Shown in pieces: positions 16,560 through 49,680 of a DNA stretch of 64,000 nucleotides. Each line of letters opens with the position of its first letter. Positions within the stretch are counted from its first letter, which is position 1. This DNA is from a virus. The notes below the pieces were generated by a model, which was not told the origin of the DNA, searched no databases, and saw only the letters and a program-made list of their open reading frames with translations. Both the position numbers and the translations under genes were made by a program. The stretch lies in IMG/VR virus record IMGVR_UViG_3300043774_000656, positions 1 through 64,000 of that record, one strand, 5' to 3'.

Positions 16560-17237
16560 CTAGGTAGCCAGGCTGACATACTTTCCCATCAGAGCATTGG
16601 CTACAAAATAAGAGTCTATTAGATCGTCAGTCGGCTTTGGTAACTTCTTCAGGCCCTTTATAGATTGAGATAGGGTCCAGAAGTCAGACTGTTCTAGCTT
16701 AGTATCAGAGTGCCTATTTTCGGCAAAGACCTCATACATCTCCTTTTTATTGTATCGACCAGAGCCTGCATGCTTCTTAATAGTACCAGGTGCCATAACA
16801 TCAAGTGTCATATCTATTGAATGGCTAGCACAATAGTCAATAAGCCTTTCTTTTAAAAAGCCGGTGGCTATAGCTATATCTATAATGTTATTGGTATTTG
16901 AGCCATAGGAAAAACCTTCAAATCCAAAATGGATTGGCCCTTTATAGTTTAGTCTCTGTACTGTGTCAAAGATTATTTCCTTGATTTGATTAGCCCTGTT
17001 GATATAACGAATGATCTTACGATATTCTGTATCACTGTAGCTGTCTATACTTTCTTGTGATGAGACATCAGCATCGAATTGGATATACGATACATCTGAA
17101 CAGGCTTTTATTCTCTCGACATAAGCTGATTCTGCTTTAGTCTTTGGGCCTATTGAATTACTAATCCAGTGACATTGTTCCTCATGGATAATGCAAATAC
17201 CTGGTGAGTTAATAGAAAAGTCGATACCGACAAACAT
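16560..17237 (-). CDS. RuvC-like Holliday junction resolvase
   Basis: GIDFSINSPG, FEGFSY, PGTIKK, GRYNKKEM and DDLIDSY motifs of the RNase H fold. Confidence 0.85.
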   Translation of the reverse strand: MFVGIDFSINSPGICIIHEEQCHWISNSIGPKTKAESAYVERIKACSDVSYIQFDADVSSQESIDSYSDTEYRKIIRYINRANQIKEIIFDTVQRLNYKGPIHFGFEGFSYGSNTNNIIDIAIATGFLKERLIDYCASHSIDMTLDVMAPGTIKKHAGSGRYNKKEMYEVFAENRHSDTKLEQSDFWTLSQSIKGLKKLPKPTDDLIDSYFVANALMGKYVSLAT

Positions 17238-17258
17238 AAAAATTAGATTAAAGGGTTA

Positions 17259-25205: not shown

Positions 25206-25210
25206 TACTA

Positions 25211-28200: not shown

Positions 28201-30283
28201 TATTAGTTCTCAGATATCTATTCGGTACACTGAATGTTGTAAAAAGATCAATGTCAACTATGCTCTTGCTTCTAGGGTTATCAGTACCTCCTAAAAAATA
28301 ATAAAGAAAATAATCAGGATGTGTAAATGCAGGTGAAGTGGTTATCAGCTGGACTTGATTTGCAGACATGAATGTATTTCTACCTACAACCAAACTATTA
28401 AATCTAGGTCCTGCGACCTTGGCAATTATAATTACCTTATTGTCTATTGAAGTTGCTTCATATAGAGTATCTTCCATATTACTGATAGCTGTAGCCATTG
28501 CTTTTGCAATTTCACTTGTAGTTCCAGTTGGGCAAAATGAAAGACCATTTGCTTCACCTGGTGTAGTAACAGTGGAATCAGCTACAATTGTATTCGGGAA
28601 GAAGTCAGACGATACAGTTTTAGTAATTATAATATCACTAGTTCCTGTAATAATTATATCAAAATTATCATCAATACAAGATAATTGTTTTTCAGCCAAA
28701 AGCAAAACGCCATTCTTAACAGTTGCTGAATATCTTTCGAAAATAGGTAAGCCTGAAACTTCTATTTCATATTCGATTTGATCTAAAACATCTTCAGGAT
28801 TTGAACTGACTACGGAAATAGGTAAAGAAAATGTACCAGCTTCATCAGTTAAAGTAAGAGTATCACCACCATCTGCAGTGATAACTTCTATTTCATATGA
28901 TTGTTTTTTGGGTAAAGCAATTACATAACTATCACCATCTGGTATTTCAGTTAATACTTCTATGTATGATGATGCTTTACTAGCTTTATCTGGGACTTTA
29001 CCGTATGTTGTTAATATAGTTTCTTCAAATCCTGTAAAATCTAAAAGATCTATTGAAGTATTTTGTAATCTTACCTCATCTGATAACCAACTGTTATCGT
29101 AGTTTAAATTATAGAAATTACCGTTCTTATCTTTTACATAGAAAATACTATCCAATGTACTAGCATCTGAAAAGCTAGGTATAAAACTATTCGCAGTTAA
29201 ATTTGAACCAACGGGTATGTCATATGACGTTGTAGTAAATTCAGTATCTACATAAAGCTTCACACCATTTGCATTTGCTATAGTGTAGGTATTCTCATTG
29301 TTAGCCGCAAACTGAGTATCAGTTTTAGGTTTAGTTTGTTTATCACCCTGTGATCTTAAATAAAACTTGTTACCATCTAATCTAAATGTACCTTCTCTTT
29401 CTTCATTTACGAATAAACCAAAATATCTGTTGATCTCAAATGAGCTAGCATCTGGGTCATCAAATAAAAATTCAAGGTTGATTATATTTGCACTAGTCAA
29501 TCTATTTCTTTCAAATCCATTTGTAATAAAAAAGTCATTCTCTAGAATAGTTCTGTCTGTAACAAATAAAGTATCATAAACATTTTCAGATTTACTTGTG
29601 AATCCACCTGGCTTATCAATACTTATACCATTAAAATAAGTACCCTGATCGGATCTGGTTGTAAAATTGATTGATGAGACTGGGAAGCCTTCAGATGTTT
29701 TATAATTTCTCAAATATCTACCGATGTTTGTAGAGTTAGTGAGATCAAACGTCTTTATGATCTTAGCCTTTGAAAGAAAAAGATCTTTTATGTTTGCAGG
29801 ATTATCAACAGTAGCAGCATTCGCATTCTCAGTCGCTGCATCTTTATTATTTACGGTAACTGGACCATCGACTCTAAAAATTATAAAATAGTCCGGTATA
29901 TTATTCTCTAACCAAATAGGTGCAAAGATACCAAATTCTTCTTTATATGAATCTGAGTTTACTGAAAAGGAGCCATAGCAATAGTCCAGATCGAACTGTG
30001 CGCCATAGTTATCTAATACACTATAATCTGAACTTGGCTTTTTAACATCATAGAATAAATCAGAAGGAACATTGCTAAAAACTCTAGCCACATCGAACTG
30101 ATATGAAGAAGACGCAGACGTCTTTACAGCCTTGTACTTTGACTTAGCCAGCTCATCATTTGCGTCGATACTTTCGATGAATGTATTATTAGAACTATCT
30201 ACAACAACCTTAACGTTACCGGTTATTTTAGGGTTAGTTCTAAGTATTCCGAATGAAGCATCTTGTAAAATCTTAATACTCAT
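25211..30283 (-). CDS. Very large virion structural protein (probable baseplate component)
   Basis: 1690 aa ORF within the contiguous structural operon; no recognised motif. Confidence 0.5.
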   Translation of the reverse strand: MSIKILQDASFGILRTNPKITGNVKVVVDSSNNTFIESIDANDELAKSKYKAVKTSASSSYQFDVARVFSNVPSDLFYDVKKPSSDYSVLDNYGAQFDLDYCYGSFSVNSDSYKEEFGIFAPIWLENNIPDYFIIFRVDGPVTVNNKDAATENANAATVDNPANIKDLFLSKAKIIKTFDLTNSTNIGRYLRNYKTSEGFPVSSINFTTRSDQGTYFNGISIDKPGGFTSKSENVYDTLFVTDRTILENDFFITNGFERNRLTSANIINLEFLFDDPDASSFEINRYFGLFVNEEREGTFRLDGNKFYLRSQGDKQTKPKTDTQFAANNENTYTIANANGVKLYVDTEFTTTSYDIPVGSNLTANSFIPSFSDASTLDSIFYVKDKNGNFYNLNYDNSWLSDEVRLQNTSIDLLDFTGFEETILTTYGKVPDKASKASSYIEVLTEIPDGDSYVIALPKKQSYEIEVITADGGDTLTLTDEAGTFSLPISVVSSNPEDVLDQIEYEIEVSGLPIFERYSATVKNGVLLLAEKQLSCIDDNFDIIITGTSDIIITKTVSSDFFPNTIVADSTVTTPGEANGLSFCPTGTTSEIAKAMATAISNMEDTLYEATSIDNKVIIIAKVAGPRFNSLVVGRNTFMSANQVQLITTSPAFTHPDYFLYYFLGGTDNPRSKSIVDIDLFTTFSVPNRYLRTNNDKNITETITKIKSVFYYTDEEIRDRNGKLIGFKDFDKYCVVAINDKFDVFRDSMGSIYLYELYDIPFGRFSIFPMRSMDFDFLSTEYGDEKELNTEIDYYSQFPDPNSTAPTFPVTQEDVFDFYNRTSFTTLLNTLTSEVISFQKGQQAISSPNIESEYERLKENDLIETSVPSRTVPYINKWVYRNGKNVRETDYRLTVSEAFGITNFSPASDEKNRNVNYFTHEWYYLQKLPRYYGLFPAERLDKVFSYFPDPIDVTSTGLLDCNSDYFTEYFTVDYLKYPIIDGTATGVTAIATGDLIQPFTVFDEVPVPVVKQLRYSTFEGASSQNFASTLFRGIKVLVKERVENQIVIDYDISSIKTKYSTRYNDYKFSCVLIPHDGQYGGVPRKTIEYEFLENRKFKSITFLIYLKIDDLLCTTEYFENNQYSTVRNDYLDRTILYALKSKVTSLDSSIPTAYDDIILSGAIDGVRTSNPASATGSYLMANANASFLRGIQNVAGQETLFIEEVLNNKDGGYNKISVEPAGSGAQLFQVKNVLNNSIVNVVDLLSEYPSFTDGWSFLTDFAKETGTYTYLEGGYNFWTNRLNKVSFAAIQDLVNQGDPSIKYTTIMEDCSIIQNMFIIELQSANYVMKSNYLRPFETIDRSNTTTEIDVLVGNKLEFSRTDSKISPIYRHIGYYQPKFNDTLYFLDPYTVELDLAIDSKEYLIKTRMKDKNTQFMFINDFGVIPNFYLHKVNDVNPSSITQLSLKSSFLPVYPKSGQISIDYKDFYTFKTNWDASYFQKFFEKNTKTNIAGTRSVIEKRSFFGSKIMKIEDSITAETFDAIRANSEEELNTLGRDILKPDNPYEIVYYEDSRRFILDVYLEKRIIQLISELGVYDFFNKYINPIYGFGSEEDIVDDVNGYIQSNIVPRYKLGNLSLYVLKSGNVKLNQQFPIINSTLTDAQKIINGYKIDSNVQYVPLNGINNFNVRLIYNKTAGFNYSIAPSFRLNKK
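25270..25277 (-). promoter_or_regulatory. Possible internal late promoter GATATATA
   Basis: Motif at the 3' end of the 1690-aa gene, 65 nt upstream of the fibre start. Confidence 0.4.
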
Positions 30284-30296
30284 TTATACTTTGAAC

Positions 30297-33200
30297 TTAT
30301 TTATTCCCTGTTATCGGATTCTTTGTAGCTAAATTTATATTTGGTTGTGTACCAGGTATATTCTTAGTAAGATCTTTAATAGCGTTAGAGATCGATATCG
30401 AAGGTATGTTATTTATACTCAAGTTATCTACAGAATACTTAGCAAATATCTCAAGGTCGAATGAAAATCTTTCACCGTCTATATCAAATAGATCAAAACC
30501 CATTTGCTTTGAAAAAACAACATCTGTAGTTACACCAGTATAATCTCCACCTACTGCACCAAATCCTTTAATACCTATACCATAATAATCTGTCATTCTG
30601 TATTGGAATACAAGTGGTATTGAAATTGAATTTGCTTCACCGACTACAATAGCTTTAGTAGAAAGAGCATCATCACCATCTACTAACAAAGTATCTTCAT
30701 CTCTAGGTAATAAGAACATATAGCTTCCGCAGCTTGCTCTACCTAAAAGAAACTGATCATTATTTTCAAATGCAGACTTTATTGTATTACCAAAGCCAGA
30801 CTGATCATCATAATAAAAACCTGTTTGTCTTTTACCGTCAGCAGCTGAAGAAATCAAAGTAGCCGTTTTAGCCATTCTGATTCTGTTAACCATTGTATCA
30901 CCTGCGCCGGTCAATGGTAAATTATTGATAGCAACTAAAGGGTGATCGACATGGACAAGTAGAGTATTACCTGATGTATAATCTGTTGCAACAGCTGGGA
31001 TAGTTGTCGATGTTGTATTAGGCACAGTGGCACTATAACTACCATTCCATATAAATTCTGTTGCATTAGTACCGATCAGCGTGTAACCTACCGTATCTAC
31101 AGTGTATTCATAATCAGCAGCAGTAGGAGGCGCTGGTACTAAACCTGTATCAATATTGTAGTCAATATAAAAATCTTCAGTGTTACCTATATTTCTATAT
31201 CTACAATAAACGTATTGACCTCTTGATTGGCTTGATTGCCTAGATGAACTAGGGTTTTTAACCATATCATTGATTGTATAACCAGCAATCGGTAAAGTAG
31301 TTGGTGACACGGGCTGTGAGAAACCAATAGGCACAAAATCATACTTACCTCTTGTTGTGTAATAGGTATCATTAATCACAAACGGGTCAATTGTAGTAAA
31401 CCCAAATTTACCACCTGATTGATATGCTCTTCTTAATCTATCTCCTGAAAGTCTAGATATCAATTCAAGCGAAGTAGCTTTAATGTTACTTAATCTAACA
31501 AAGTAGTTCTTTGATACAATTGCACCTTTTCTTATATTCAAGTTCTGTACATCCTTCTGGTAATAACCTGCAAATAGAGTAGTAAGTGTGTCCTTTTGGA
31601 TAGGAGTTGATACACCGTTATTATCAAGTATGGAAACTGAAAGTTCTCCTCTAGATCTCTGTATGAATTGTTCTAAGACATCAATTCTATTTTGAAGACC
31701 AACAAGGGCATCGAACAAAGTAATTGGTGTTTGTTCAGCTGAAAGGAAACCAGATGCAATCGCTGTACTAGCATGTGCAAAGTATTTGCCATTAGAACTA
31801 AATGATGAAGACAAATGGGTATCAATACCTTTAGATTGTAGATCTTCATTTAATTGAACTCTTGCAAGCTCTCTTTCATTCTGCTTAACTATATCTGTTG
31901 TTGTATCAGGTTGTATAAGTTCCTGTGGGAACTCTACTGTAACAACTTCACTGTAATCAGACTCTAATGGATTTGAAGGATAGCCAGCTTCAGAAAGAGA
32001 TTTTATTCTAATCTGTACTGCTTCTCCCTGTTGAATTGCAATATCTAACTGGTTGATATTTATAGTATCAGCATTCTCTACATTTTCAATAGCCCATGAG
32101 TACTGACCTGTAACTTCATCCATTACTCTCTTTCTAACAACAGTAGGTGATACTACCCAGTTGGTGAAAGCACCTCTTCTTTCTGCGCCGTTTTTATCTA
32201 CAAAAGATAATTGCTCTACATTATTAGCCGTACCTGATGTGTCTACATATCTGTATTCTACAATGAATTGTACAACTTCTTGATTACCTGTAAACTTAGA
32301 GAATTTAGGGTCCGGTATTTGCCAGAAACCTCTTACTCTATATTTAGGCTGCGCATTTAATAGGTCCTGTGACGTAGACTTAGCTTGTATATCTTGTACA
32401 GTTGAAGCAAAAAGCTGAGCAGTAGAAGCTCTCTGATCTACTAATGATTGCAATTCATTAAGATCCTTTTCTCTTTCTACATCACTGCTATATTGCTTAG
32501 TATTGATAGTAGTTCTCTTAACTGATATAGCAGAGTCCTTCTCTTTAATTTCAGAAGCTAATCTATTTCTATCATCAGCCAATCTTTTTATATCACTGAT
32601 AACAGGATTATCTGTAATGTGATTATTGATTTGAACTACTTTAAAATCACCTGCAGCAATAGAAGGTGAATCTGGATTTATACCATACGCAGAAGGTACC
32701 ATCTTATCTTTAGAATATGATAGCATCATCTGACCAAAGTCAACTGCTTGATTTCTATAGAAAGTATCTAAAGAAAGTGTCTGACCATTTGCCAGAGTAG
32801 TTGAAAGTTCATTAGTTAAGAATGCAGTACCAGGAGACCAAAGCTCAGCTGGCAGTTTTGAAGTAGGGCTTATAGGTTTAATGAATGTAACTAGATATTC
32901 ATCAAATCCTACCGGTATATCAATTGAGATAGACTCTTCTAAACCTTTATAAATTGAGAGAACATTTGCTCCAATTGTTACAGCGTCATAACCTTCAATT
33001 ATTTCAAGTACAATAGTATTACTACTAGCGTCAATCTCAGTAACTCTATAACGTGTGTTTTTATTATCATTATTAACCATTAACTGGTCGCCAATCTTAA
33101 GACTGAGCGTATCTGGGCTGCCAGAAAGTACATCAGTATACGTTAACTTATTAAGCTTATACGTCTTACGTCTTATATCTGTAGTTACACCATTTGATAA

Positions 33201-33878
33201 TACCTGCTTGGTAACATCTGATATTTTAATAACATCGAATTTACCAATATAGTTAATTGTTCTAGGAGGTGTATCTAAAATTTCCTCATCTAAGACAAAG
33301 GATATACTTTGTGAAAGAAGATCACTTATAAGTTGTGTAAAACTAATGTCTGATCTACCTTTTAAGTTCTTATTAAAGTATCTTCTTTTCTCTTCATTAT
33401 CGATCTGTAAAAGATATCTTCTTACCAGGATGTTTTCCGTATCAATAGGAATTTGGCCAGAAAGATCTAAGCTAACATACATCAATGGGTCAATAAAAGA
33501 CTCAAAGAAATAATTACTTTTTATGTTAAACGTAACAGGTGCTGCAACTGAATTTATATTATCTGCAGGTAGTTTAAGCCTAGATGCAATTATCTTTCTA
33601 TAGCTACCATCAGACAGTCTGACATTAACGTCAGTATCTCCAGTTCCTGTTAAATTTTTGATGTTATTCTCAGCATCTGTAATCCTCTTAAGAAGGTGGC
33701 CGAAACTAGGTACCTGTATACTTTTCAGAGTATCATTATCATCGAATAATTGAACTGTTACCGATTCTCTGTTAGTGGTAATAGCTTCATTTAATCTTTG
33801 AAAAACTTCAAGGGCATTTCTGTTCAGTCTAATAAACTGAGACATCAATGTTGATAATGAATTTTTAGTATTACTCAT
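30297..33878 (-). CDS. Large virion structural protein
   Basis: 1193 aa with coiled-coil segments and an Ig/FN3-like stretch; structural operon context. Confidence 0.5.
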   Translation of the reverse strand: MSNTKNSLSTLMSQFIRLNRNALEVFQRLNEAITTNRESVTVQLFDDNDTLKSIQVPSFGHLLKRITDAENNIKNLTGTGDTDVNVRLSDGSYRKIIASRLKLPADNINSVAAPVTFNIKSNYFFESFIDPLMYVSLDLSGQIPIDTENILVRRYLLQIDNEEKRRYFNKNLKGRSDISFTQLISDLLSQSISFVLDEEILDTPPRTINYIGKFDVIKISDVTKQVLSNGVTTDIRRKTYKLNKLTYTDVLSGSPDTLSLKIGDQLMVNNDNKNTRYRVTEIDASSNTIVLEIIEGYDAVTIGANVLSIYKGLEESISIDIPVGFDEYLVTFIKPISPTSKLPAELWSPGTAFLTNELSTTLANGQTLSLDTFYRNQAVDFGQMMLSYSKDKMVPSAYGINPDSPSIAAGDFKVVQINNHITDNPVISDIKRLADDRNRLASEIKEKDSAISVKRTTINTKQYSSDVEREKDLNELQSLVDQRASTAQLFASTVQDIQAKSTSQDLLNAQPKYRVRGFWQIPDPKFSKFTGNQEVVQFIVEYRYVDTSGTANNVEQLSFVDKNGAERRGAFTNWVVSPTVVRKRVMDEVTGQYSWAIENVENADTININQLDIAIQQGEAVQIRIKSLSEAGYPSNPLESDYSEVVTVEFPQELIQPDTTTDIVKQNERELARVQLNEDLQSKGIDTHLSSSFSSNGKYFAHASTAIASGFLSAEQTPITLFDALVGLQNRIDVLEQFIQRSRGELSVSILDNNGVSTPIQKDTLTTLFAGYYQKDVQNLNIRKGAIVSKNYFVRLSNIKATSLELISRLSGDRLRRAYQSGGKFGFTTIDPFVINDTYYTTRGKYDFVPIGFSQPVSPTTLPIAGYTINDMVKNPSSSRQSSQSRGQYVYCRYRNIGNTEDFYIDYNIDTGLVPAPPTAADYEYTVDTVGYTLIGTNATEFIWNGSYSATVPNTTSTTIPAVATDYTSGNTLLVHVDHPLVAINNLPLTGAGDTMVNRIRMAKTATLISSAADGKRQTGFYYDDQSGFGNTIKSAFENNDQFLLGRASCGSYMFLLPRDEDTLLVDGDDALSTKAIVVGEANSISIPLVFQYRMTDYYGIGIKGFGAVGGDYTGVTTDVVFSKQMGFDLFDIDGERFSFDLEIFAKYSVDNLSINNIPSISISNAIKDLTKNIPGTQPNINLATKNPITGNK

Positions 33879-40041: not shown

Positions 40042-41922
40042 TTATTTTTTTAATTTAGCGTAATCGTCTCTGTACACGTTTTGACCTTTGTACTTATCCT
40101 TAATCTCTTGTTTAGCAGCATCCATTCTAGCCATGTTTAAAGTCAAATCTGCTTGATTTTTGAAGTATATGCCCAATGAAGAAGCTCTACCCTGTACAGG
40201 TGTAGGTTCATAGTACACACCGTTTCTATCAGTCCATCCACCTCTTATGACTGCAAGATCTCTCAGACCGGTTACAATATCACCAAACTCATCTAGACCT
40301 AAATTAGGATCTTCGTTTGGTGCAATAGGTATCTTAGTTTCAATAAGCTCTTTGTTAAAGAACACGTATCTCTTTTTATTACCTTCACCTTCCTGTAAGA
40401 ATGGTGTAGTAGGTGTAACTTTGTATGTCTTCTTTATATAGTAGCCATTTCTGATAGCTGTTTCGTTCTCTTCAGAAACAAAGAACACGCTTACAGAATC
40501 TACACCTTTGATATCTTCGATTATAGAAACTATATCGCTCTTTGGTGTTCTATCTCTGCGTCTAATTTTTATGAAATAGTCATTAAGCTTAGATCTTATT
40601 TCATTTTCTATAACACCTAGATCATAACCTTCAAATGTTCTTAAAACTATATTCAGTGCATACTTTTTAATTGTAGGATCAACGAACTGAAGTTCAGTGC
40701 TGGTCATTTGTCTACCACTTTCATTAATTACAGCTTTTAGCATTCTTTTCTCATCGTCTGTGAGTGTAAACTCTTCAAGATCGATTGTAAAATAATCATT
40801 GTCTGTAGTAACCTTTCTCTGTATGTCAGGCACTAAAAATAAATAAATGATGTTGTCGTCATCTAGATAATCATCTCCTGTTTCGTTGAAAGCATCAATG
40901 TAAGAGAAGTAATTAAATTTAGAAAGATAATACTCGTAGTTTTCTGGGTTAGCTAATACAAATGACCTGCTAGCCATAGGCGCTATAAGCTTTGTGAAAA
41001 ATGGACTTTCTTCATTTGAACCCAATGTTGGATTCTTTGAAGTTTCAATAAGTAAAAATTCGTTTAGGTCTACTTCTTCACCGTTAACATCACTACCTGG
41101 ATCTATAAATGTAAATTCAACAGGTTCTGATCTAGAGCTAATGTTACCTCCTGCACCTGCTGTAGCAAGATATTCAACATCTATGAATGCACCCCTTTCT
41201 GGGGCTTTACCAAAAAAGCCATTACCGAAAAATAGATCTAAACCTCCGGCCAAACCTGTTCTAACAATAACACCCTTTGTATCTAAAGCCATGTCATACA
41301 ATGAATCATATAATTGCCATAACTCGCCATTTACATAAACTTTCACGTTATCATTATCTACCATACCAGGTGTGTTAACGTTAAATGATTGCATAGCTTC
41401 ACCTGTTCCAACAACTCTCTGTGTCTCAAATTCACCCTGTATTATAGCACAGTATGTAAAATCTACAGTGTTCTTTTCAGCTCTGATAAAATCACCAGAA
41501 AAAGTCATGGTATACTTTATGCCATTGTCTTTGCATCTAAGTATAGTTCTATTTGAAATCAGGATGTATGGTCCTGGAAATTGAGACTGCTTACCTGGTT
41601 TAAACTTAAATCTTACTTCACCCAGTGCACTTATAGGTCTGGTTGGATTATGACCAGTAAGAGCAGCTAAACCATAAATAGATTCAAGGTTGTTTGCAGT
41701 CATGATATTGTTTTCAGTAACTGCATCTGTAATATAAAACATAATCAATTCACCGATATTTGACATTACCTTAAGTAATTGACCAAATGGTGAAGATACT
41801 GTAAAAACCTTTAGAGAACTTTGATAAGCACCTACAAGAAAGCTTATTGAGTCTTCATATATTTGCTCACCTAGTATTCTAGTTTTATGTAGAAAGTTAT
41901 AATTATCTTTAACTGTTGACAT
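40042..41922 (-). CDS. Baseplate wedge protein (gp6/J-like)
   Basis: TANNLESIYGLA..GHNP, FGNGFFGKAP, YLATAGAGGN, GSNEES and ENYE motifs typical of gp6. Confidence 0.85.
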   Translation of the reverse strand: MSTVKDNYNFLHKTRILGEQIYEDSISFLVGAYQSSLKVFTVSSPFGQLLKVMSNIGELIMFYITDAVTENNIMTANNLESIYGLAALTGHNPTRPISALGEVRFKFKPGKQSQFPGPYILISNRTILRCKDNGIKYTMTFSGDFIRAEKNTVDFTYCAIIQGEFETQRVVGTGEAMQSFNVNTPGMVDNDNVKVYVNGELWQLYDSLYDMALDTKGVIVRTGLAGGLDLFFGNGFFGKAPERGAFIDVEYLATAGAGGNISSRSEPVEFTFIDPGSDVNGEEVDLNEFLLIETSKNPTLGSNEESPFFTKLIAPMASRSFVLANPENYEYYLSKFNYFSYIDAFNETGDDYLDDDNIIYLFLVPDIQRKVTTDNDYFTIDLEEFTLTDDEKRMLKAVINESGRQMTSTELQFVDPTIKKYALNIVLRTFEGYDLGVIENEIRSKLNDYFIKIRRRDRTPKSDIVSIIEDIKGVDSVSVFFVSEENETAIRNGYYIKKTYKVTPTTPFLQEGEGNKKRYVFFNKELIETKIPIAPNEDPNLGLDEFGDIVTGLRDLAVIRGGWTDRNGVYYEPTPVQGRASSLGIYFKNQADLTLNMARMDAAKQEIKDKYKGQNVYRDDYAKLKK

Positions 41923-42302: not shown

Positions 42303-43118
42303 TTAACTTGTTAAGAAGTAATCTACGCCTTCGTCTCCCTTAATCTCTTCCTTGATTGCATCAAGTTCTTCCTGACCAGCATCTCTGATCATGTCAGCAT
42401 TGAGAGTAACGTTACCCGGCATTTGATAACTAAATGTCATCAACATTGTGCCCAGTTGAGTTTTACATTTTGCCACAACATATCTGTGGAAAATCTCATC
42501 TGAATATAAAGCACAGTCTGATATAGATTCATACACACTAAGCACACAGTTGTGCTTTGGTGTTTCACCTTGTATCTTTAAAATTCTATTTAATCTATTA
42601 TAGTTGTATGATACCTTGGAATTAAGTACCTGTCTGGCCATATCAAATAAATTCTCGTTTGCTACATAATACATAAGGTTTTCACCGAGTACTGTTGTAC
42701 CTCCACCAAGGGCATATGCATTTGCAAATATGAATTTATCTAATGTAAAATCCGCGTCTAGACTAAAACCATTATTACCAGATCCAATCAAAAATTCACC
42801 TGCCTGTGTCAATTCATTTACACCGACAATATATCCTGCACCATCTGGTCTCGCAGGAGGTAGTGGTATTTCTCTTTTAGCCTTAAACAGATCTGTTGTA
42901 AACGTAGATCTAGGTATTACATAATAACCTTCCTGTACTGAGTCTTCATAGTTCTTATAAAACCATTTTTTAGTCTCAGTAATAATACGAACCATTTCCT
43001 TTTTAGGTATGGTAATAGGTATCATACAAGCGCTTGTCAATTCTGAATTGACATTGCTGATCAGCTGATCTAAACATCTACCAGCGTTTGCCGCTAATTC
43101 ATCGTTAATACTTGGCAT
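42303..43118 (-). CDS. Neck protein (gp13-like)
   Basis: C-terminal RYVVAKCKTQLG...MPGNVTLNADMI..GQEEL resembles T4 gp13-family C-termini. Confidence 0.75.
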   Translation of the reverse strand: MPSINDELAANAGRCLDQLISNVNSELTSACMIPITIPKKEMVRIITETKKWFYKNYEDSVQEGYYVIPRSTFTTDLFKAKREIPLPPARPDGAGYIVGVNELTQAGEFLIGSGNNGFSLDADFTLDKFIFANAYALGGGTTVLGENLMYYVANENLFDMARQVLNSKVSYNYNRLNRILKIQGETPKHNCVLSVYESISDCALYSDEIFHRYVVAKCKTQLGTMLMTFSYQMPGNVTLNADMIRDAGQEELDAIKEEIKGDEGVDYFLTS

Positions 43119-44424
43119 TTATACCTGGGATTATTTTCTCAAATTTAACTACTTCAGTGCCATCAAATTTAGATAGATCTGTAATCTTACCTTCTCTGAA
43201 GATACCGTTAATCATAGTACCGTTCATAACACCATTATTACCACAGAAGTATGAATCATTCAAGGTTACACTTCTGTTGACATATGAATCTTTAAGCTTA
43301 CAGTTAGTAGCTTCACATCCGTCAAATAGGTTAGACTCATATATTTCTGTTCCTGTAAGTTCTGATGCAAACACATCGCACTTATTTAGAATACCTCTAA
43401 CCTTTGTACAGTCCACGATATCAACCTCTTCTAGCTTAAATGAACCACTTAGATCTGCATCCTTGATCTGTATCTTACCAGTGTTGGAGTCATAGTTAAT
43501 TATACCTGAAGCCATTGCGCCTTCAGTAAGTATATCAAATATCTTATCTCTGATCTTAGACCAGAATGATTTAATGTTTCTGTCATCGGTGTCTAAATTA
43601 ACCAGCAATCCAATCTTTGGGAAATTTTCTTTAAATTTCTCAAATGATCTATAGGCTTCTAGAATGTTCTGATGTTTTTCAAGTATCTTCTTGAGTTTCT
43701 TTTTATCATCCTGTGTAAATACTGGATTGGCTGCAGTCTTATAGAGTGATTCTATGAATTGATCCTGTGTAGCTAAAAGCTTATCAGTCTTCTTTTCATA
43801 ACCATCACCGCCTAGATATCTAAATTCAAGATAGTTCTTTTCAAGCTTGAGGAAGTTTACACCATAATACTTTTCGGTAGGAAATATAAAATCAGACTGA
43901 CTAACATTCTTAGCAGTATCATAGCTAAGTTTATCTACAGGTACTACAAACTTTATAGACTTGGCATATACAGAATCTTTACGATCAGGATAATCTTTAA
44001 AGATCTTATCTTCGTCAAAATCCAAAATGAATTTAAGCCTGTTTAATCTAACTAAAAAACTAGAACCTAGCTTCTCGTCATTAAATGATATATTGAAGTG
44101 TAGACCACATCTGCTATTAGTATAACCGTTCTCTTTTATCCATTTAAGAACTTTGATTAAAGTAATTCTGGCTTCCTGATATGGTTGTGATGCTGTTACT
44201 AATTCAATAAGCTTCTTACCGCCTGAATAATCCTTCTCTATCTTATAATGATCAGGTGTTACTTTAAAATCACTATGTGACTCATCAAACACGCTTATCT
44301 TTTTACCTAAATATCTGGCCAGCATTTCAGCTGTTTCCTCGGTCTTATAATTAGAATAGAACTCAAATTCATAACCAATCTTAGAGTTCATCAAGACATT
44401 TATTGTCTGCTCATTTAACAACAT
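43105..44424 (-). CDS. Putative amidoligase (COOH-NH2 ligase fold) with C-terminal beta-helix-like repeats
   Basis: GYEFEF, ELVT, CGLHFN, KYYGVN and EFRYLGG motifs, then pentapeptide-like repeats. Confidence 0.8.
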   Translation of the reverse strand: MLLNEQTINVLMNSKIGYEFEFYSNYKTEETAEMLARYLGKKISVFDESHSDFKVTPDHYKIEKDYSGGKKLIELVTASQPYQEARITLIKVLKWIKENGYTNSRCGLHFNISFNDEKLGSSFLVRLNRLKFILDFDEDKIFKDYPDRKDSVYAKSIKFVVPVDKLSYDTAKNVSQSDFIFPTEKYYGVNFLKLEKNYLEFRYLGGDGYEKKTDKLLATQDQFIESLYKTAANPVFTQDDKKKLKKILEKHQNILEAYRSFEKFKENFPKIGLLVNLDTDDRNIKSFWSKIRDKIFDILTEGAMASGIINYDSNTGKIQIKDADLSGSFKLEEVDIVDCTKVRGILNKCDVFASELTGTEIYESNLFDGCEATNCKLKDSYVNRSVTLNDSYFCGNNGVMNGTMINGIFREGKITDLSKFDGTEVVKFEKIIPGINAKY

Positions 44425-44435
44425 AGTGAAGCCAG

Positions 44436-44454
44436 TATTTTGAGTATATATTTA
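44436..44454 (-). promoter_or_regulatory. Putative late promoter, extended (TAAATATATACTCAAAATA)
   Basis: Exact 19-bp match to 56936-56954 and near match at 52116-52132. Confidence 0.7.
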
Positions 44455-44457
44455 AGA

Positions 44458-44485
44458 CAAAAAGAAAGGGGCTTGATGCCCCTTT
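44458..44485 (-). terminator. Intrinsic terminator after the S1 gene
   Basis: AAAGGGGC-loop-GCCCCTTT hairpin followed by a T-rich run on the minus strand. Confidence 0.85.
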
Positions 44486-44487
44486 AA

Positions 44488-45639
44488 TTATTTTTGCGTA
44501 TCTGCAGCTAAGCTCAAGAATACCTTCTTATTGACTTTGTCAAGCTTGTTTATCCTTACTCCTACTGTATCACCTTCTTTGAATTTACCTTTTAATTCAC
44601 TTACGTGGATTAGACCGGAAATACCTGGTGAAAGTTCAACAAACGCACCATACTCTTTAATGCTTGTAATTCTACCAACAACTACCGATGATGGCTTATA
44701 AACCTCTTCAGCTTTCTCCCAAGGGCTTTCTTTATAAAACTGGGTAAGAATGATCTTGAAGTTGGTAATAATTTCCTTTACATAGAACTCGAGTGTATCA
44801 CCTGGTTTAATTTGACCTGCTTCATGTTTAGCTTTCAGATCATCTGTAAGATCACTGGAGTGTATCATACCTGTAAGACATTCACTAAACTCACAGAATA
44901 CTCCATACTTTGTAGTACCTGTCACGAAGCCTGTTTGTAATTGTGCAGGATTCTCCTTTATCTTCTCTATTGCAGAAGGTATGAGCGAGTGTAAGTATTG
45001 TCTATGTGAAACAACAACTGTACTCTTTTCTTTAGAATAGTTAACAACCATTACAGGTAATTCCTTTCCAAGAAGAACTGTAAAGTCATGTAACTTATTT
45101 AGACCAGCTAAAGATCCTGGCATAAAAGCTTTAATACCGTCAATATCGACCATGTAACCAGCTGAAATCAATTCTTCAACTCTAGCTATATAGGCAACGT
45201 TGTCTTTACCAATTGCATCAATAAGCTCTTTTGTTTTCATTTCATTTACACTATCTGTGAATGATGCTGAAATGAAATCTTTAGTTTTATTCTCTCCGAT
45301 TTTTACAGAAAGTCTAGTACCAACTTTGAAAAGCTCTTTAAATTCTGCAGCTTCTTTTTTCAGGTCCATATAAGCATGTTCACGATATCCTATATCGAAA
45401 ATTGCATCATCTCCTGTAATACTAATAATTTCTGCTTCGACCAGTTGACCTTTTACTGGCTCTCTGTAATTGCTTGATCTCTTTTCATAAAGATCATAGA
45501 GTTCTTGTGCGTCTTCTCCATAATAGAATACTTTATCACCGGCTACGGTTTTAACTTTTCTATTTGGTTTTCTTTTGATTTTAGCCTGTTCTGATTCGAC
45601 TTCAAGCCAAAAACTTTCTTCGGTTTGGAAACCTGACAT
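44488..45639 (-). CDS. rpsA: Ribosomal protein S1 homolog (four S1 domains)
   Basis: GQLVEAEI...DIG; AGYMVDIDGIKAFMPGS...VVVSHR; YGVFCEF...GMIHSSDL; YGAFVELSPGISGLIHVSEL. Same order as S1 domains D1-D4. Confidence 0.9.
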   Translation of the reverse strand: MSGFQTEESFWLEVESEQAKIKRKPNRKVKTVAGDKVFYYGEDAQELYDLYEKRSSNYREPVKGQLVEAEIISITGDDAIFDIGYREHAYMDLKKEAAEFKELFKVGTRLSVKIGENKTKDFISASFTDSVNEMKTKELIDAIGKDNVAYIARVEELISAGYMVDIDGIKAFMPGSLAGLNKLHDFTVLLGKELPVMVVNYSKEKSTVVVSHRQYLHSLIPSAIEKIKENPAQLQTGFVTGTTKYGVFCEFSECLTGMIHSSDLTDDLKAKHEAGQIKPGDTLEFYVKEIITNFKIILTQFYKESPWEKAEEVYKPSSVVVGRITSIKEYGAFVELSPGISGLIHVSELKGKFKEGDTVGVRINKLDKVNKKVFLSLAADTQK

Positions 45640-45686
45640 AAAATAATTTTTAAAGGGTTAAACAATATACTATTATACTATCATAG

Positions 45687-45694
45687 TATATATC
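45687..45694 (-). promoter_or_regulatory. Putative late promoter GATATATA upstream of S1
   Basis: GATATATACT motif in the 61-bp intergenic gap; a TATAAT element also lies at 45672-45677. Confidence 0.6.
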
Positions 45695-45700
45695 CGTCTG

Positions 45701-46084
45701 TTATACGATTGTAGCAGGTGCAGAAGGGGTTGAAGTTGCTCCACTGCCTGCACCTGAATTGGTAACTACATTAACTACCTGGCCAGGTGGTATAGTTATA
45801 GTAGCAGACTTAATGTATCTGTCTATATTGTTTACAAGTACTGGTGCAAGCTTAACAGCCATTGCTTTACCAAAAACTTCTGAAGCTTTTTCTAGATCTA
45901 CAGTCTTATTACCCTTCCTTGTATTTAGGTTTATAGGTACATCAATGCCAAAACTGGTTTGTACATTGACAACAACGTTGTCTTTAGGATCTAAGGCTCT
46001 ATTGTAAAGAACCATTGCTTCAGCTGCTGATTTAGATATAGCATCAAATAGTGATACGTAAAATGTAAGAGGTACTAATGGCAT
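45701..46084 (-). CDS. Hypothetical protein, possible spike-tip protein
   Basis: 127 aa directly downstream of the gp5-like spike; G/T/P-rich C-terminus. Confidence 0.45.
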   Translation of the reverse strand: MPLVPLTFYVSLFDAISKSAAEAMVLYNRALDPKDNVVVNVQTSFGIDVPINLNTRKGNKTVDLEKASEVFGKAMAVKLAPVLVNNIDRYIKSATITIPPGQVVNVVTNSGAGSGATSTPSAPATIV

Positions 46085-46095
46085 AATTTAAGTTT

Positions 46096-46905
46096 TTATA
46101 ATTGTGATGGACCGTCTATTGAAACGGAACTACTTCTTGTTTGAGGTATGGTTGCAGCTTTAATCGGCGCAGCTATTTGTGTTATTACAGGTTGTGCTGC
46201 AGTACCAAGCGCAGTCAGTGCCGCAGATAAAGGTGCTAATGGAAATATAGCACCACATACGGTAGCCTGAGCAGTAGCATACGTCTGTACAGCAATAGCT
46301 AAATTATTTATCTGATCAGCTAAAGCATTAAGTGCATCTACATTTTTATTACCTAACACTGCTGGCTCATCTGATTCATTTTCTTTGCCTATGCTTATAC
46401 TATCCTGTTGTACATGTATTACTTTACCACCGGAGTGTTGTATGAAAACAGTATTATCAGGTCGTATGTTTATTTGACTACCGTTATAATCCAACATTAA
46501 ACCTGTTTCTTCAGTAAAGAAAATCTTAATTGGACCCGGTTGAGCTTCAGTATCGTATATTATAGAATGAGCATTCGTATAAGAACCTTCTATCTCAGCT
46601 TTCAATTCATCTGAGATGTGTTGATGATAAAAGTATTCCGGTTCATACATATCACCATTATCAAAACTAATACCAACAACTGAATCGACCTTAGGCACAG
46701 AATGAAAACCAGAACCAGTTGCTGAACCTCCTGTTACCATGTTTAAAGGTCTAGCCCAAGGTAAGTCTTCGTCTAAGACATCGTCAAATTTACCAAAAAT
46801 TCTAACTTTAATCTTACCCTCAAAATCAGGATCTTGATTATCTATTACTTTACCTAACCAATTCGATGTTTTTAAATCGTCTTGAAATAAATTATTTAAT
46901 GCCAT
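46096..46905 (-). CDS. Baseplate central spike (gp5-like OB fold, no lysozyme domain)
   Basis: GKVIDNQDPDFEGKIKVRIFG...LPWA...VPKVDSVVGISFDNGD, then short beta repeats and EPAVLG. Confidence 0.88.
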   Translation of the reverse strand: MALNNLFQDDLKTSNWLGKVIDNQDPDFEGKIKVRIFGKFDDVLDEDLPWARPLNMVTGGSATGSGFHSVPKVDSVVGISFDNGDMYEPEYFYHQHISDELKAEIEGSYTNAHSIIYDTEAQPGPIKIFFTEETGLMLDYNGSQINIRPDNTVFIQHSGGKVIHVQQDSISIGKENESDEPAVLGNKNVDALNALADQINNLAIAVQTYATAQATVCGAIFPLAPLSAALTALGTAAQPVITQIAAPIKAATIPQTRSSSVSIDGPSQL

Positions 46906-46907
46906 AG

Positions 46908-48161
46908 TTATGATCGATAAATGTTACCTAAAGCACTAGGTGTAGCATCAGCGGCCCTATTGTTTTGTCTATTCTGTGATAATACGTCAGCCTGTTGTCC
47001 TAATGAGAGTAAAGAACCCTGCTGTAATGCACTTAAAGCATTTGATGCAGAAAATCCATATACATTACCTAATAGTAATCTATTAAATCTAGCAGCAAGA
47101 CCTTCTGTAGCATTTCTTGCTAATTGTTCTGCTGTGTTTAGGGCAGCACCTGCTAATGCAGCACCTGCATTTTTAGCCGCAGATTCCATTAAATCTCGAC
47201 GTGCATCAGGATCTTCTGCCAACTGCTTTAATTTCTCAATCATTCCAACACCATCACCTGTTTCAGGTGCTGGAAGATCACCTAGGAATGAATAATTCAT
47301 ACCTGTACCTTCATATCCTGGAGGAAGATTCATTATAGTTGGATTGATATAACTTTCATCAATGCTATCATACGTAAACTCTATTACCTGTGATGCTGGT
47401 TCAGGTGCTACATTAGATACTGAAGCAAAATTACCAAACGACTTATCCGAATCAAATTCACATTTCTTAAGTGTAAACATAATGTTTGCACCAAATTCAT
47501 TTACAACTTTTGCAGTTTCCATTGCAGCTTTTTGTGCAGGTGTTTCAATCGTGGGTAAACTTATAGGTGTAGCACTTGGGTATAGTGATGTAAGTTGATT
47601 AAATGTATTTACAGCAGCATCAAGTGCACCGGCATTTGCCTGTATGTTTCTTATTTCCTGTATGAATATAGTTACCTGGAACTTCCTTAAATTACTTGGG
47701 ATAATCTCTCTTCTAAATTCATAATCAAAGCACGCCTTTCTGTATAAGTCCATTAGAGCAGTTATCCTAAGGTCAATAGATTCAAGTGTAGTAACTTTAA
47801 GTCTAGACTCGTCTCCACCTTTATATGGATCTGAAAGTTTTTTATAGTCCCAAACTTTATCTATACCCTCAACTGTTTGCCAATACCACGGCATCCAATA
47901 ATTAGTGTCCAGTAATAATTCCTGAAACATTTTAAGATATTCAAATCTAGCACTCTGGTTATTTGCCGCTAAATAATTTAAAGCACTGCCTACCTTCAAA
48001 GAGTCTCTTACTAAGAGTGGGCTTTCTTTTGTGTCAAAGTCATTAAATAAAAGTACAAACCCTAAATATGTAGGATCATTATACTTGCCATAATCGGCCT
48101 GTAGTCCCTTTCTGAACCTTTCAATGGTCGATAAATCAAATGTTCTAGTTGCTACTGCCAT
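46908..48161 (-). CDS. Baseplate/tail tube initiator-like protein (gp54-like)
   Basis: Tube-fold-like pattern in the N-terminal part; position within the hub genes. Confidence 0.45.
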   Translation of the reverse strand: MAVATRTFDLSTIERFRKGLQADYGKYNDPTYLGFVLLFNDFDTKESPLLVRDSLKVGSALNYLAANNQSARFEYLKMFQELLLDTNYWMPWYWQTVEGIDKVWDYKKLSDPYKGGDESRLKVTTLESIDLRITALMDLYRKACFDYEFRREIIPSNLRKFQVTIFIQEIRNIQANAGALDAAVNTFNQLTSLYPSATPISLPTIETPAQKAAMETAKVVNEFGANIMFTLKKCEFDSDKSFGNFASVSNVAPEPASQVIEFTYDSIDESYINPTIMNLPPGYEGTGMNYSFLGDLPAPETGDGVGMIEKLKQLAEDPDARRDLMESAAKNAGAALAGAALNTAEQLARNATEGLAARFNRLLLGNVYGFSASNALSALQQGSLLSLGQQADVLSQNRQNNRAADATPSALGNIYRS

Positions 48162-48162
48162 G

Positions 48163-49680
48163 TTACGGTGTATTTGGCCACTCTCTTCTAAAGAGGTGCA
48201 TTTTTTGTCTCATTCTACCCTCGACTTCATCATAAGTGATGAATATCCTAGCTATAGTATATATGCCGGTTAATCTTTCATTTACTTTCAAATTAAGATT
48301 ACCGTTTTTAAGATCACCTTCATCACCTTTTTTATCTTTCATTTCTTCACCTCTTTCCTGGTTCAGAACCTCTTTCTGCTCCTGTACAGCAGAGTTTACA
48401 GGGCTCTGCTCATAGATAATAACCGGTAGTAGTTGATATCTATACAATGATAAATTGGTTGTTTCAAGCTCTACTTCTAAATACATTTTTTCAAGCTCAA
48501 CATTGTTCTTATAGTTAAGCATCTGTGCATAGTAATAGTTACGGTGAACATTTTTACCCTGTTTACCTACATACTTATACTTCTGTTGCTCATTATAGAT
48601 TCTTTCACCTTCAGCTGTAAGCTTACCTTTTAATGGAGCCTGATCTGGTGGCAAGTTTTCAGTAGTAAGAGGTTCAACAGTAAATGTTCTATACTCTTTA
48701 TCTACATCATCATAATATTGAATAATTCTTCGATACCCATCATTCAGGGTAATAGTAGCAGCGTTGTTGATTAGTTTATACTTTTCAATATAAAGATTAC
48801 TACCTCGCTTTGCATACTGGTTTGTTAAGTACAACTTAACCTCACTTTGCGTAACAGGCGTATCATTTTCAATGTGATTAGATATACTTGGATCTTGTAT
48901 CAAGCTACTTAAAGTATCTTCTAGTTTTTCATCAAACGTCACCTGTTTATTGACATTAACCAATGTAAGATAATAATATGGATCTATGTATGCTTTAAAA
49001 AAACTATTGTCATCTTTATACGCTGAGTCTAGTGCATCACCTAATAGTTTAAACTTAGTATCAAACGGGCAAAGCCTTTTCATTAAATCATCTGTTCTGT
49101 CTTCATTTGATGCAAAGCCTAATTGCAACTCGTCTGCAAGCGTTATAAAAAAATCATATGAATTTGCTTCTGGATATGTCTTACATGTTTCAGCATATAA
49201 TCCAGGTAATCTTAAAACACCGGTTATGTTAATTGAAACCGTGTCACTACCTCCTCCTTTTTCATCACCTCCGCCTCCACTGTATGCTTCTGAGTTACCA
49301 GCATCTGATGATACTTCGGTTATATCAAAGTCCATTCTAATAGGCTTGTAAAGAGTTTCATCTTTGCTTTTAATGTAAAGCATGACTACATCACCATCTG
49401 ATGGGTATTGACCTTTTGTAAAAGTACCTTTACTGTCTCTTACTGTAGCCTTCATATAAGGAACTATACCATCTAGATTTAGTTCAAAGTCAACTACATC
49501 TTCTTTATTAAAATCAAATCTGTTTATTCTAATTGCAGGATATTGGTCACCTGCAAATTTACTCATCCTATCATATTGCTTATCATATTCTTGACCCTCT
49601 TCTATGTTAGCCATATCAAAACTTTCAAGGCTAATCGTAGGTTCAGTAACTGTTAAAATGTTATTAGATAATGAAGGCAT
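48163..49680 (-). CDS. Baseplate hub protein (gp27-like)
   Basis: 505 aa between the gp53-like and gp5-like genes; C-terminal LTGIYTIARI...LFRREW is typical of hub proteins. Confidence 0.6.
   Translation of the reverse strand: MPSLSNNILTVTEPTISLESFDMANIEEGQEYDKQYDRMSKFAGDQYPAIRINRFDFNKEDVVDFELNLDGIVPYMKATVRDSKGTFTKGQYPSDGDVVMLYIKSKDETLYKPIRMDFDITEVSSDAGNSEAYSGGGGDEKGGGSDTVSINITGVLRLPGLYAETCKTYPEANSYDFFITLADELQLGFASNEDRTDDLMKRLCPFDTKFKLLGDALDSAYKDDNSFFKAYIDPYYYLTLVNVNKQVTFDEKLEDTLSSLIQDPSISNHIENDTPVTQSEVKLYLTNQYAKRGSNLYIEKYKLINNAATITLNDGYRRIIQYYDDVDKEYRTFTVEPLTTENLPPDQAPLKGKLTAEGERIYNEQQKYKYVGKQGKNVHRNYYYAQMLNYKNNVELEKMYLEVELETTNLSLYRYQLLPVIIYEQSPVNSAVQEQKEVLNQERGEEMKDKKGDEGDLKNGNLNLKVNERLTGIYTIARIFITYDEVEGRMRQKMHLFRREWPNTP

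Follow-up and report, generated by a model that had tools for sequence, protein, structure and literature searches.

A phage-encoded four-domain homologue of ribosomal protein bS1 in the baseplate gene block of a lineage of large aquatic and gut phages

The DNA analysed here (hereafter the window) is the first 64 kb, positions 1 to 64,000, of the 123,304-base IMG/VR virus record IMGVR_UViG_3300043774_000656, which is estimated to be 45% complete. Within its baseplate genes lies an open reading frame (ORF) for a protein of 383 amino acids (aa), which is a phage-encoded homologue of ribosomal protein bS1 with four S1 domains (D1-D4). Phage S1 of this kind is already known, and the window protein adds detail to it. 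The interpretation favoured here, with a probability of about 0.55, is that the protein is a ribosome-bound phage S1, made with the virion genes, which supports or retunes initiation independent of Shine-Dalgarno (SD) sequences on phage mRNAs. It builds on homology, domain order, conservation, purifying selection, an N-terminal anchor motif and SD-less leaders as read from the data, and on a structural model for docking to uS2 and uS8. Positions of all features are collected in Table 1.

The assignment to bS1 is supported by profile, structure and fold comparisons. The Pfam S1 family (PF00575) matches the protein in three stretches (E 2.1e-25), and the NCBIfam rpsA models NF004952 (170.3 bits, aa 22-377 on model positions 7-373 of 580) and TIGR00717 (150.7 bits, aa 53-378 on 8-343 of 516) align with it colinearly. 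Among solved structures the best match is E. coli S1 (6h4n_y, E 4e-39), with residues 60-350 of the query falling on residues 17-310, that is, on D1-D4. The AlphaFold2 model, for which a 23-row family alignment served as input, shows a helix at residues 7-21, a loop, a second helix at 44-51 and then four oligonucleotide/oligosaccharide-binding (OB) folds (predicted local distance difference test, pLDDT, 84.6; predicted template modelling score, pTM, 0.60). Its top Foldseek matches are ribosome-bound bS1 chains (9gut_B, E 4.7e-25; 9guq_B, template modelling (TM) score 0.72 over D1-D2). In every comparison D1 and D2, of the ribosome-binding type, and D3 and D4, of the RNA-binding type, are present and colinear with bS1. 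D5 and D6 are absent; the chain stops 6 residues past D4, as it does in all 23 aligned family members. The protein matched no family of the PHROGs. An earlier reading made from the sequence only had described a four-domain S1 with a charged N-terminal extension, and both descriptions hold: the extension begins with an acidic helix, and the loop behind it, at residues 20-30, is rich in K and R.

Within the family alignment D1 and D2 are the best conserved domains, with invariant FMPGSL and VSHR.YL stretches, and D2 is the most conserved part of the whole protein, while D3 and D4 retain the YG.F...H residues of RNA-binding S1 domains. In E. coli S1, D1 and D2 hold the ribosome and do not bind RNA (PMC10123108). 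D1-D3 form the minimal active E. coli S1, D4 is stimulatory and loss of D5-D6 costs little growth (PMC3858243). A protein made of D1-D4 can therefore be fully active, and the phage S1, by its sequence, appears to be a bS1 trimmed to its functional core. It is this core, together with the conserved D2 and the RNA-binding residues of D3-D4, that favours the reading of a ribosome-bound S1.

A further link to the ribosome is provided by the N-terminus. Cryo-electron microscopy of the Flavobacterium johnsoniae ribosome revealed that residues 1-42 of bS1 form a helix-loop-helix, and it is by this N-terminal segment that Bacteroidia bS1 is anchored to uS2 and uS8, where mRNA leaves the 30S platform (PMC13000457); the PDB entry 9zcd contains both S1 and uS2 of this species. 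Of 31 Bacteroidia RpsA, 26 carry a motif [FI][DN]W at a distance of 25-30 residues, mostly 27, from the start of D1, and the motif is found in none of the RpsA from other Bacteroidota classes (0/28), Bacillota (0/6) or Acinetobacter (0/1). Among 31 proteins of the phage family, 21 carry the motif, 15 as F-x-W (for instance FDWDAYE, FDWEAYE and FNWDLYD) and six, the window protein included, as F-W. In the phage proteins it lies 41-60 residues (mostly 41-54) before D1, and the phage loop is therefore about 20 residues longer; this loop is basic and holds a conserved N..(V/I)KT..G.KV(F/Y) stretch.

Phage S1 residues 1-62, with the family alignment, were modelled in complex with the uS2 and uS8 proteins encoded by a Flavobacterium-like genome, for which 21 and 23 Bacteroidia rows, respectively, were aligned. 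The model scored 0.64 versus 0.32 for the best of three controls, and the mark of 0.64 is reached by 58 of 80 solved complexes and by 2 of 110 mismatched pairs. Docking runs share at least 47% of their contacts, with a partner pLDDT of at least 62. The predicted interface involves S1 residues 7-23 (helix 1), 31-39 and 43-51, residues 7-8, 11, 16, 29, 32-37, 41 and 43-45 of uS2, and residues 19-23, 46-47, 49, 60 and 62 of uS8. Low-error pairs place S1 35-39 antiparallel to uS2 32-36 and helix 2 (47-51) on uS2 11, 33-34 and 41-45. Among the low-error pairs listed none involves helix 1 or uS8, and helix 1 may be the part that touches uS8. The control in which uS2 was replaced and the partner kept still scored 0.32, which fits a separate uS8 contact. 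In E. coli, Met6, Arg7 and Phe32 of uS2 hold the N-terminal helix of bS1 (PMC10123108). According to the PDB alignment table, uS2 of the model is numbered one ahead of the E. coli protein, and the modelled contacts therefore cover these three residues. The model suggests that the phage S1 N-terminus is the counterpart of the Bacteroidia bS1 anchor and docks on uS2/uS8. On the question of whether D1/D2 might lack the ribosome-binding surface, sequence and model lean towards ribosome binding, with a Bacteroidia anchor motif present, in altered form in the clade of the window, and docking above controls.

The gene and its setting are conserved throughout a viral lineage. S1 homologues were found in 51 viral loci of IMG/VR at 30-88% identity, and in all 51 the gene occupies the same place. 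A homologue of the gp5/V-like hub lies upstream within 2 kb in 42 of 43 loci, a gene for an amidoligase-like protein follows within 700 nucleotides (nt) in each of the 50 loci with enough sequence, and this synteny holds down to 30% identity. Compared with the window, S1 has a median identity of 40.8% and the amidoligase-like neighbour one of 41.3%, which means that S1 and the structural block have changed at the same pace. The ratio of nonsynonymous to synonymous substitution rates (dN/dS) of S1 is 0.044 against the relative L003 and 0.103 against L002, with dS near saturation, and that of neighbouring genes is 0.03-0.17. The S1 gene is under strong purifying selection and, judging from these comparisons, appears to be old and needed.

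A protein database returned 1403 matches, of which the best 120 are nearly all 367-441 aa long and come from freshwater, marine (Tara) and other sources. Across 185,579 species, with one genome each, the family motifs FMPGSL[AG]GxN and G[VI]F[CAI]EF..CL were confirmed at only two loci. One is a 57.8-kb contig of a Flavobacteriaceae metagenome-assembled genome (MAG) with the same four-gene order (S1, amidoligase-like, 271-aa and 120-aa proteins), and the other is the contig end of a rumen MAG, where a wedge-protein homologue stands beside S1. The same Flavobacteriaceae MAG also has a normal rpsA (495.5 bits). Its S1 contig is either a binned phage contig or an infection trace, which would make it a possible host lead for the marine branch.

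The record covers part of a jumbo phage genome, in which promoters are of Bacteroidia style and start regions are rich in A and lack SD sites. A promoter-like repeat, CTTT(G)...TATATTTACACC, also written CTTT(G)..N..(G)TATATTTACACCATAAC, stands in about 20 copies before small genes of the record and resembles the -33 TTTG / -7 TAnnTTTG promoter type of Bacteroidetes. By its sequence the repeat points to a Bacteroidia host and to an early gene set; none of the about 20 host-like early promoter copies in the record stands before S1. SD-like 4-mers precede 14 of 155 ORF starts (9.0%) against a background of 10.1% and are not enriched, and A reaches a frequency of 0.52-0.66 at -11 to -14 and 0.53 at -3, so that the A-rich, SD-less starts described from the sequence were recovered in the counts. 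These positions are close to -3, -6, -12 and -13, which enhance translation in F. johnsoniae (PMC13000457). DNA runs holding the stretch are labelled as lake, freshwater and estuary metagenomes, a few of them as metagenomes of a crustacean, a fungus or algae. A bS21 gene was looked for in the 123-kb record and not found, which, given a completeness of 45%, does not amount to its absence.

Nearly all long ORFs of the window lie on the minus strand. The surroundings of S1 include the hub and a baseplate wedge protein, and replication genes sit further away, in agreement with the baseplate cluster named by the sequence-only reading. The same reading had taken S1 for a self-contained unit with a late motif and a TATAAT element upstream and a terminator downstream. 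The unit, with its own promoter-like motif and terminator, was confirmed, and so was the motif ATATATAC upstream, since ATATATA is kept there in 33 of 36 distinct related loci, the three misses being cut or mis-started ORFs. The TATAAT hexamer was dropped as a promoter element: sigma-70-like sites occur at chance (66 found, 66.4 expected). Bacteroidia are not known to use a TATAAT -10 box.

ATATATA also occurs in all 27 distinct spacers between S1 and the next gene, against a background of 0.044 per 100 nt. In the 123-kb record there are 10 copies of ATATATAC, all on the coding strand and seven of them intergenic; their number is not above expectation (10 versus 14.3), and it is strand and placement that are notable. 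The motif resembles the late TATAAATA of T4. It is a conserved phage promoter-like element; the copy behind S1 would restart transcription for the amidoligase-like gene, and a late nature of the motif, and with it late timing of S1, may be supposed. An equivalent G+C-rich hairpin with T run after S1 was seen by eye only in the freshwater relatives L002, L003, L004, L015 and L051, and terminator-like sites as a class are not enriched in the 38-54 kb region (5 found, 6.7 expected). Beyond the window, ATATATAC(T/C)AT abuts the ATG of two small minus-strand genes (record 66335 and 69338), with 3 nt between; if ATATATAC is a promoter, these genes would give leaderless or nearly leaderless mRNAs.

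The S1 leader carries a conserved element, the box AACCCTTTAA, also written AACCCUUUAA, the general form of which is A[AC]C..TT[TA]A. In 34 leaders, from the window and 33 distinct loci, the pattern begins 18-22 nt before the S1 ATG in 32, the two misses being one letter off, and it is found ahead of none of the other ORFs of 100 aa or more in the same loci, 283 in number. The count overstates independence, because the pattern was derived from the same sequences and many loci are close kin. The distance of the box to the promoter motif varies (3-25 nt) and that to the ATG is fixed, which makes it a part of the mRNA leader rather than of the promoter. A second exact copy in the window (17248-17257, minus) again begins 20 nt before an ATG, that of a weakly RuvC-like gene (16560-17237; phrog_159, E 2.9e-14). 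With up to one mismatch allowed, AACCCTTTAA is not enriched in the window (6 versus 7.1 expected), and only the two exact copies at -20 are notable. As a sequence pattern, the conserved S1 leader box appears to be a new observation.

A tblastn search against GenBank phages retrieved LR756500.1 (462 kb, 45% identity), LR745206, LR756501-4 (up to 735 kb) and Lak phages (28-30%), the LR records being the huge phages of Al-Shayeb and colleagues. LR756500 keeps the order of hub, S1 and amidoligase-like gene and in LR756502 S1 follows tail-fibre homologues, while LR756501 and Lak-A1 are without such neighbours. Ribosomal protein S1 was reported in huge phages by Al-Shayeb et al. (2020; PMC7162821), who noted that phages with possible rpS1 rarely have SD sequences, mentioned up to six S1 domains, considered a 'true' rpS1 hard to confirm and proposed hijacked initiation. 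The statement of the earlier reading that some huge phages encode S1 homologues was thus correct, and these homologues fall in one clade with the window protein (LR756500, LR756501, LR756502). The idea of an S1-based hijack is not new either, as it was put forward there for huge phages without SD sequences. The window protein differs in its four domains, and anchor motif, docking model, synteny and leader box are added here. New are the fixed place of the gene in the baseplate module in 51 loci, its neighbour-like rate of divergence, its strong purifying selection, the match of the N-terminus to the Bacteroidia anchor, the docking model, the box in the leader and the constant amidoligase-like partner.

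Cellular Bacteroidia bS1, which has a role on SD-less mRNA (F. johnsoniae, 9zcd; PMC13000457), shares with the phage protein the colinear D1-D4, the N-terminal helix-loop-helix and the F-x-W before D1. It has six domains and 572-739 aa in 31 sampled proteins, versus four domains and 383 aa in the phage, so the contrast drawn earlier with six-domain cellular S1 stands. The longer basic loop, the F-W of the window clade and the lack of nesting in the tree set the phage protein further apart. Another 30S platform protein of the mRNA exit, bS21, was found in structural-gene blocks of large freshwater Bacteroidetes phages, where a late function was proposed and expression was seen by metatranscriptomics (Chen et al., 2022; PMC9723584). 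That protein is distinct from S1 and is encoded in a head module instead of a baseplate module, and its expression has been shown, whereas S1 is known from sequence. The Microcystis jumbo phage PhiMa05/MaAM05 also has an annotated rpsA, which unlike the S1 gene studied here stands beside ispH and other ribosomal protein genes and was traced to a Vampirovibrio-like host (PMC13157829). This rpsA falls outside the studied clade, on the cellular side of the tree, and is an independent and more recent capture. A literature search for dedicated studies of phage S1 turned up only Al-Shayeb et al. (2020), Mizuno et al. (2019) and the PhiMa05 paper, and a 2025 paper on freshwater 'moraphages' of Bacteroidota has no mention of ribosomal proteins.

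The origin of the phage S1 was addressed in trees with cellular S1 proteins. Against all cellular S1 compared, a profile built on the phage core aligns colinearly along D1-D4; it scores 135-169 bits in Bacteroidia, 150-170 in other Bacteroidota, 133 in Acinetobacter and 28-109 in Bacillota. Cellular outgroups were taken from genome searches and from bacterial DNA filed under phage names. In a maximum-likelihood tree (LG+G4, 94 rows, leaving out the short matches L051, L127, L130 and L132), the phage family forms one clade of 29 rows with a value of 100 in the Shimodaira-Hasegawa-like approximate likelihood ratio test (SH-aLRT). The clade was again supported at 100 in an LG+C20 tree of 60 rows, which omits MaAM05 and contains a random choice of 14 from the 30 Bacteroidia rows and of 12 from the 28 rows of other Bacteroidota. 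Neither tree nests it in Bacteroidia, and in the approximately unbiased (AU) test a single clade of phage and Bacteroidia sequences is not rejected (p 0.296, log-likelihood difference 11.6). Of the proposed comparison with Bacteroidota RpsA, the monophyly of the phage proteins was thus obtained and the nesting within Bacteroidia was not. These trees point to a single ancient capture, with long-branch effects likely.

Several observations weigh against a ribosome-bound S1 of Bacteroidia type. With Bacillota as root, the stem of the phage clade measures 1.45 changes per site and branches off outside Bacteroidota, Acinetobacter and the Microcystis phage copy; as the family does not fall inside Bacteroidia, the anchor motif could be convergent. 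The equivalog cut-offs of the rpsA models are far from reached (170.3 versus 524 for NF004952, 150.7 versus 577 for TIGR00717 and 140.6 versus 368 for NF005208). The motif itself is altered in the clade of the window, with F-W for F-x-W and V/I for Y/F three residues on, and 10 of 31 members (among them LR756500 and a large marine clade) have DDPF(D/E)TK instead while keeping the K-V strand region, so that not all of the family share the helix-1 anchor. The docking score may partly reflect solved bS1-uS2 structures (4toi, 6bu8, 9zcd), and the host uS2 and uS8 of the model are stand-ins. S1 domains are also common in non-ribosomal RNA-binding proteins (Al-Shayeb et al., 2020; PMC7162821), and when bS1 was seen in viromes, S1 domains were set aside as ambiguous (Mizuno et al., 2019). 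One metatranscriptome run gave four short contigs on neighbouring genes (43325-43590, 45804-45971, 47850-48011 and 48806-49045) and none on the S1 ORF, which, at a depth of 2-4 and with DNA carry-over possible, is no evidence either way.

The mechanism envisaged is that S1 would be transcribed from ATATATAC as its own terminator-closed unit inside the baseplate block, and from this position it is most likely produced along with the virion genes. The helix-loop-helix at its N-terminus would dock at uS2/uS8, near the mRNA exit of the 30S platform, either replacing host bS1 or sitting next to it, and domains 3-4 would capture A/U-rich SD-less phage leaders and feed them to the 30S subunit. Competition with or displacement of host bS1 may result, and a preference for phage mRNAs, or a bias toward late mRNAs, may be supposed. 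A clearly less probable explanation is that the protein acts off the ribosome, with D3-D4 acting on free RNA as a chaperone, shielding mRNA or regulating translation, perhaps that of its own mRNA by way of the leader box. S1 domains do act off the ribosome in many proteins (Al-Shayeb et al., 2020; Mizuno et al., 2019), E. coli S1 has extraribosomal roles and autoregulation (PMC13157829), a box at -20 in 32 of 34 S1 leaders versus 0 of 283 other ORFs would fit an operator, and the F-x-W helix is missing in 10 of 31 family members. Nevertheless, D1 and D2, which in E. coli hold the ribosome and do not bind RNA, are the best conserved domains, 21 of 31 members keep the anchor motif, and the docking model stands above its controls (0.64 versus 0.32). 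The same motif and docking evidence would suit a dominant-negative competitor, which is rather unlikely: bound more tightly to the bS1 site and without D5-D6, it would recruit no host mRNA and shut off host translation rather than stimulate that of the phage. The extra basic loop and the predicted strand pairing with uS2 32-36 could indeed raise affinity, and D5-D6 are absent. Phage mRNAs with their host-type, SD-less, A-rich leaders would suffer too, however, D3-D4 retain the RNA-binding residues, and E. coli S1 without D5-D6 is nearly fully active (PMC3858243).

The constant place in the baseplate block (hub upstream in 42 of 43 loci, the same downstream neighbour in 50 of 50) and the position of S1 beside tail-fibre homologues in LR756502 would also be expected of a virion-associated or assembly protein, packed in or helping to build the baseplate and maybe injected along with the DNA, so that it could act on ribosomes immediately. 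This is improbable, given that the protein shows no features of a structural protein and matches no PHROG, that its gene has its own promoter-like motif and terminator, and that the conserved neighbour is enzyme-like and not structural. A recently captured fragment of host rpsA without phage function, for which nothing but the homology speaks, is refuted by conservation, purifying selection, synteny and clade. The phage proteins are monophyletic on a long stem (29 rows, SH-aLRT 100), dN/dS is 0.04-0.10 with synteny down to 30% identity, and the only two confirmed loci with the family motifs among 185,579 species both lie beside homologues of window phage genes. As to the doubt raised in the huge-phage paper, sequence and model lean to a yes: the phage S1 of this clade is probably a true ribosomal S1.

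The amidoligase-like label of the 439-aa neighbour is visible only through its homologues, as Pfam finds nothing at E 0.01 on the protein alone. PF12224 is matched by 4 of 14 homologues (best E 4.2e-06), one homologue has Pentapeptide repeats, and the Atlas feature score of the protein to viral 'Amidoligase' clusters is 0.96. Next to it, a 271-aa protein (42303-43118, minus) is the best conserved of the block, being 91-92% identical to its L002/L003 counterparts; its match to phrog_211 (head-tail adaptor Ad2) is confined to the C-terminal part (positions 729-961 of 976), so this label is perhaps wrong for it. Three giant ORFs of 1445, 1690 and 1193 aa (20868-33878, minus) probably encode tail fibres, and homologues of those at 25211-30283 and 30297-33878 directly precede the S1 gene in the 642-kb phage LR756502. 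The window itself is without tRNAs; beyond it, ARAGORN called one tRNA-Leu(GAG) at record 96350-96439, and a second tRNA-like 3' end (GGTTCGAATCCTG...) near record 97.5 kb was not called.

Table 1. Features of the S1 locus and related signals (window coordinates unless record is stated)
Feature	Position	Strand	Basis or remark
Phage bS1 homologue, coding sequence, 383 aa	44488..45639	minus	ORF, Pfam, NCBIfam, structure matches, AlphaFold2, fold matches
Residues 1-62: anchor motif F10-W11 in an acidic helix, then a basic loop holding the conserved KVFYY strand, then helix 2; predicted uS8 and uS2 contact	45454..45639	minus	Family alignment, motif count, models, PMC13000457
S1 domain 1 (residues 66-126)	45262..45444	minus	E. 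coli S1 alignment, AlphaFold2
S1 domain 2 (residues 150-211), with family-invariant FMPGSLAG..NKL stretch	45007..45192	minus	Alignments, AlphaFold2
S1 domain 3 (residues 235-299), YGVF...H kept, RNA-binding S1 type	44743..44937	minus	Alignments, AlphaFold2
S1 domain 4 (residues 319-377), best Pfam S1 stretch	44509..44685	minus	Pfam, alignments, AlphaFold2
Leader box AACCCTTTAA	45650-45659	minus	Begins 20 nt before S1 ATG
TATAAT hexamer	45672-45677	minus	No sign that it matters
Promoter-like motif ATATATAC	45686-45693	minus	47-54 nt before ATG
Intrinsic terminator hairpin, 8-bp stem with 5 G-C, then CTTTTTGT (T run)	44465-44485	minus	3 nt past stop codon
Second ATATATAC copy	44444..44451	minus	Between S1 terminator and next gene
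Amidoligase-like neighbour, 439 aa, pentapeptide-like C-terminus	43105..44424	minus	Own ATATATAC at 44444-44451
gp5/V-like hub	46096-46905		PF04717 and phrog_37871
Baseplate wedge protein	40042-41922		phrog_219
Copies of CTTT(G)..N..(G)TATATTTACACCATAAC repeat	61851 and 62470 (61.8-62.5 kb); record 84-118 kb (84.7-93.9, 104.2, 109.4, 117.5 kb)	minus (window copies)	

Being a natural minimal four-domain S1 with a remodelled anchor, long kept by a lineage of large aquatic and gut phages, the protein may serve as a probe of which parts of bS1 suffice on Bacteroidia ribosomes and of whether a virus can retune mRNA choice. A speculative joint reading, to be regarded as doubtful, is that the inserted basic hairpin would pair as an extra strand of the uS2 sheet and outcompete host bS1, that the box at -20 would be an S1 operator or preferred landing site, and that the amidoligase-like enzyme would modify a platform protein or S1, much as RimK glutamylates bS6. 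The way in which Bacteroidia ribosomes select start codons in the absence of SD pairing is under active study, and bS1 and bS21 on the 30S platform are central to it (PMC13000457). If the joint reading is true, the S1 locus would be a lineage-wide module that reprograms SD-independent initiation in Bacteroidia.

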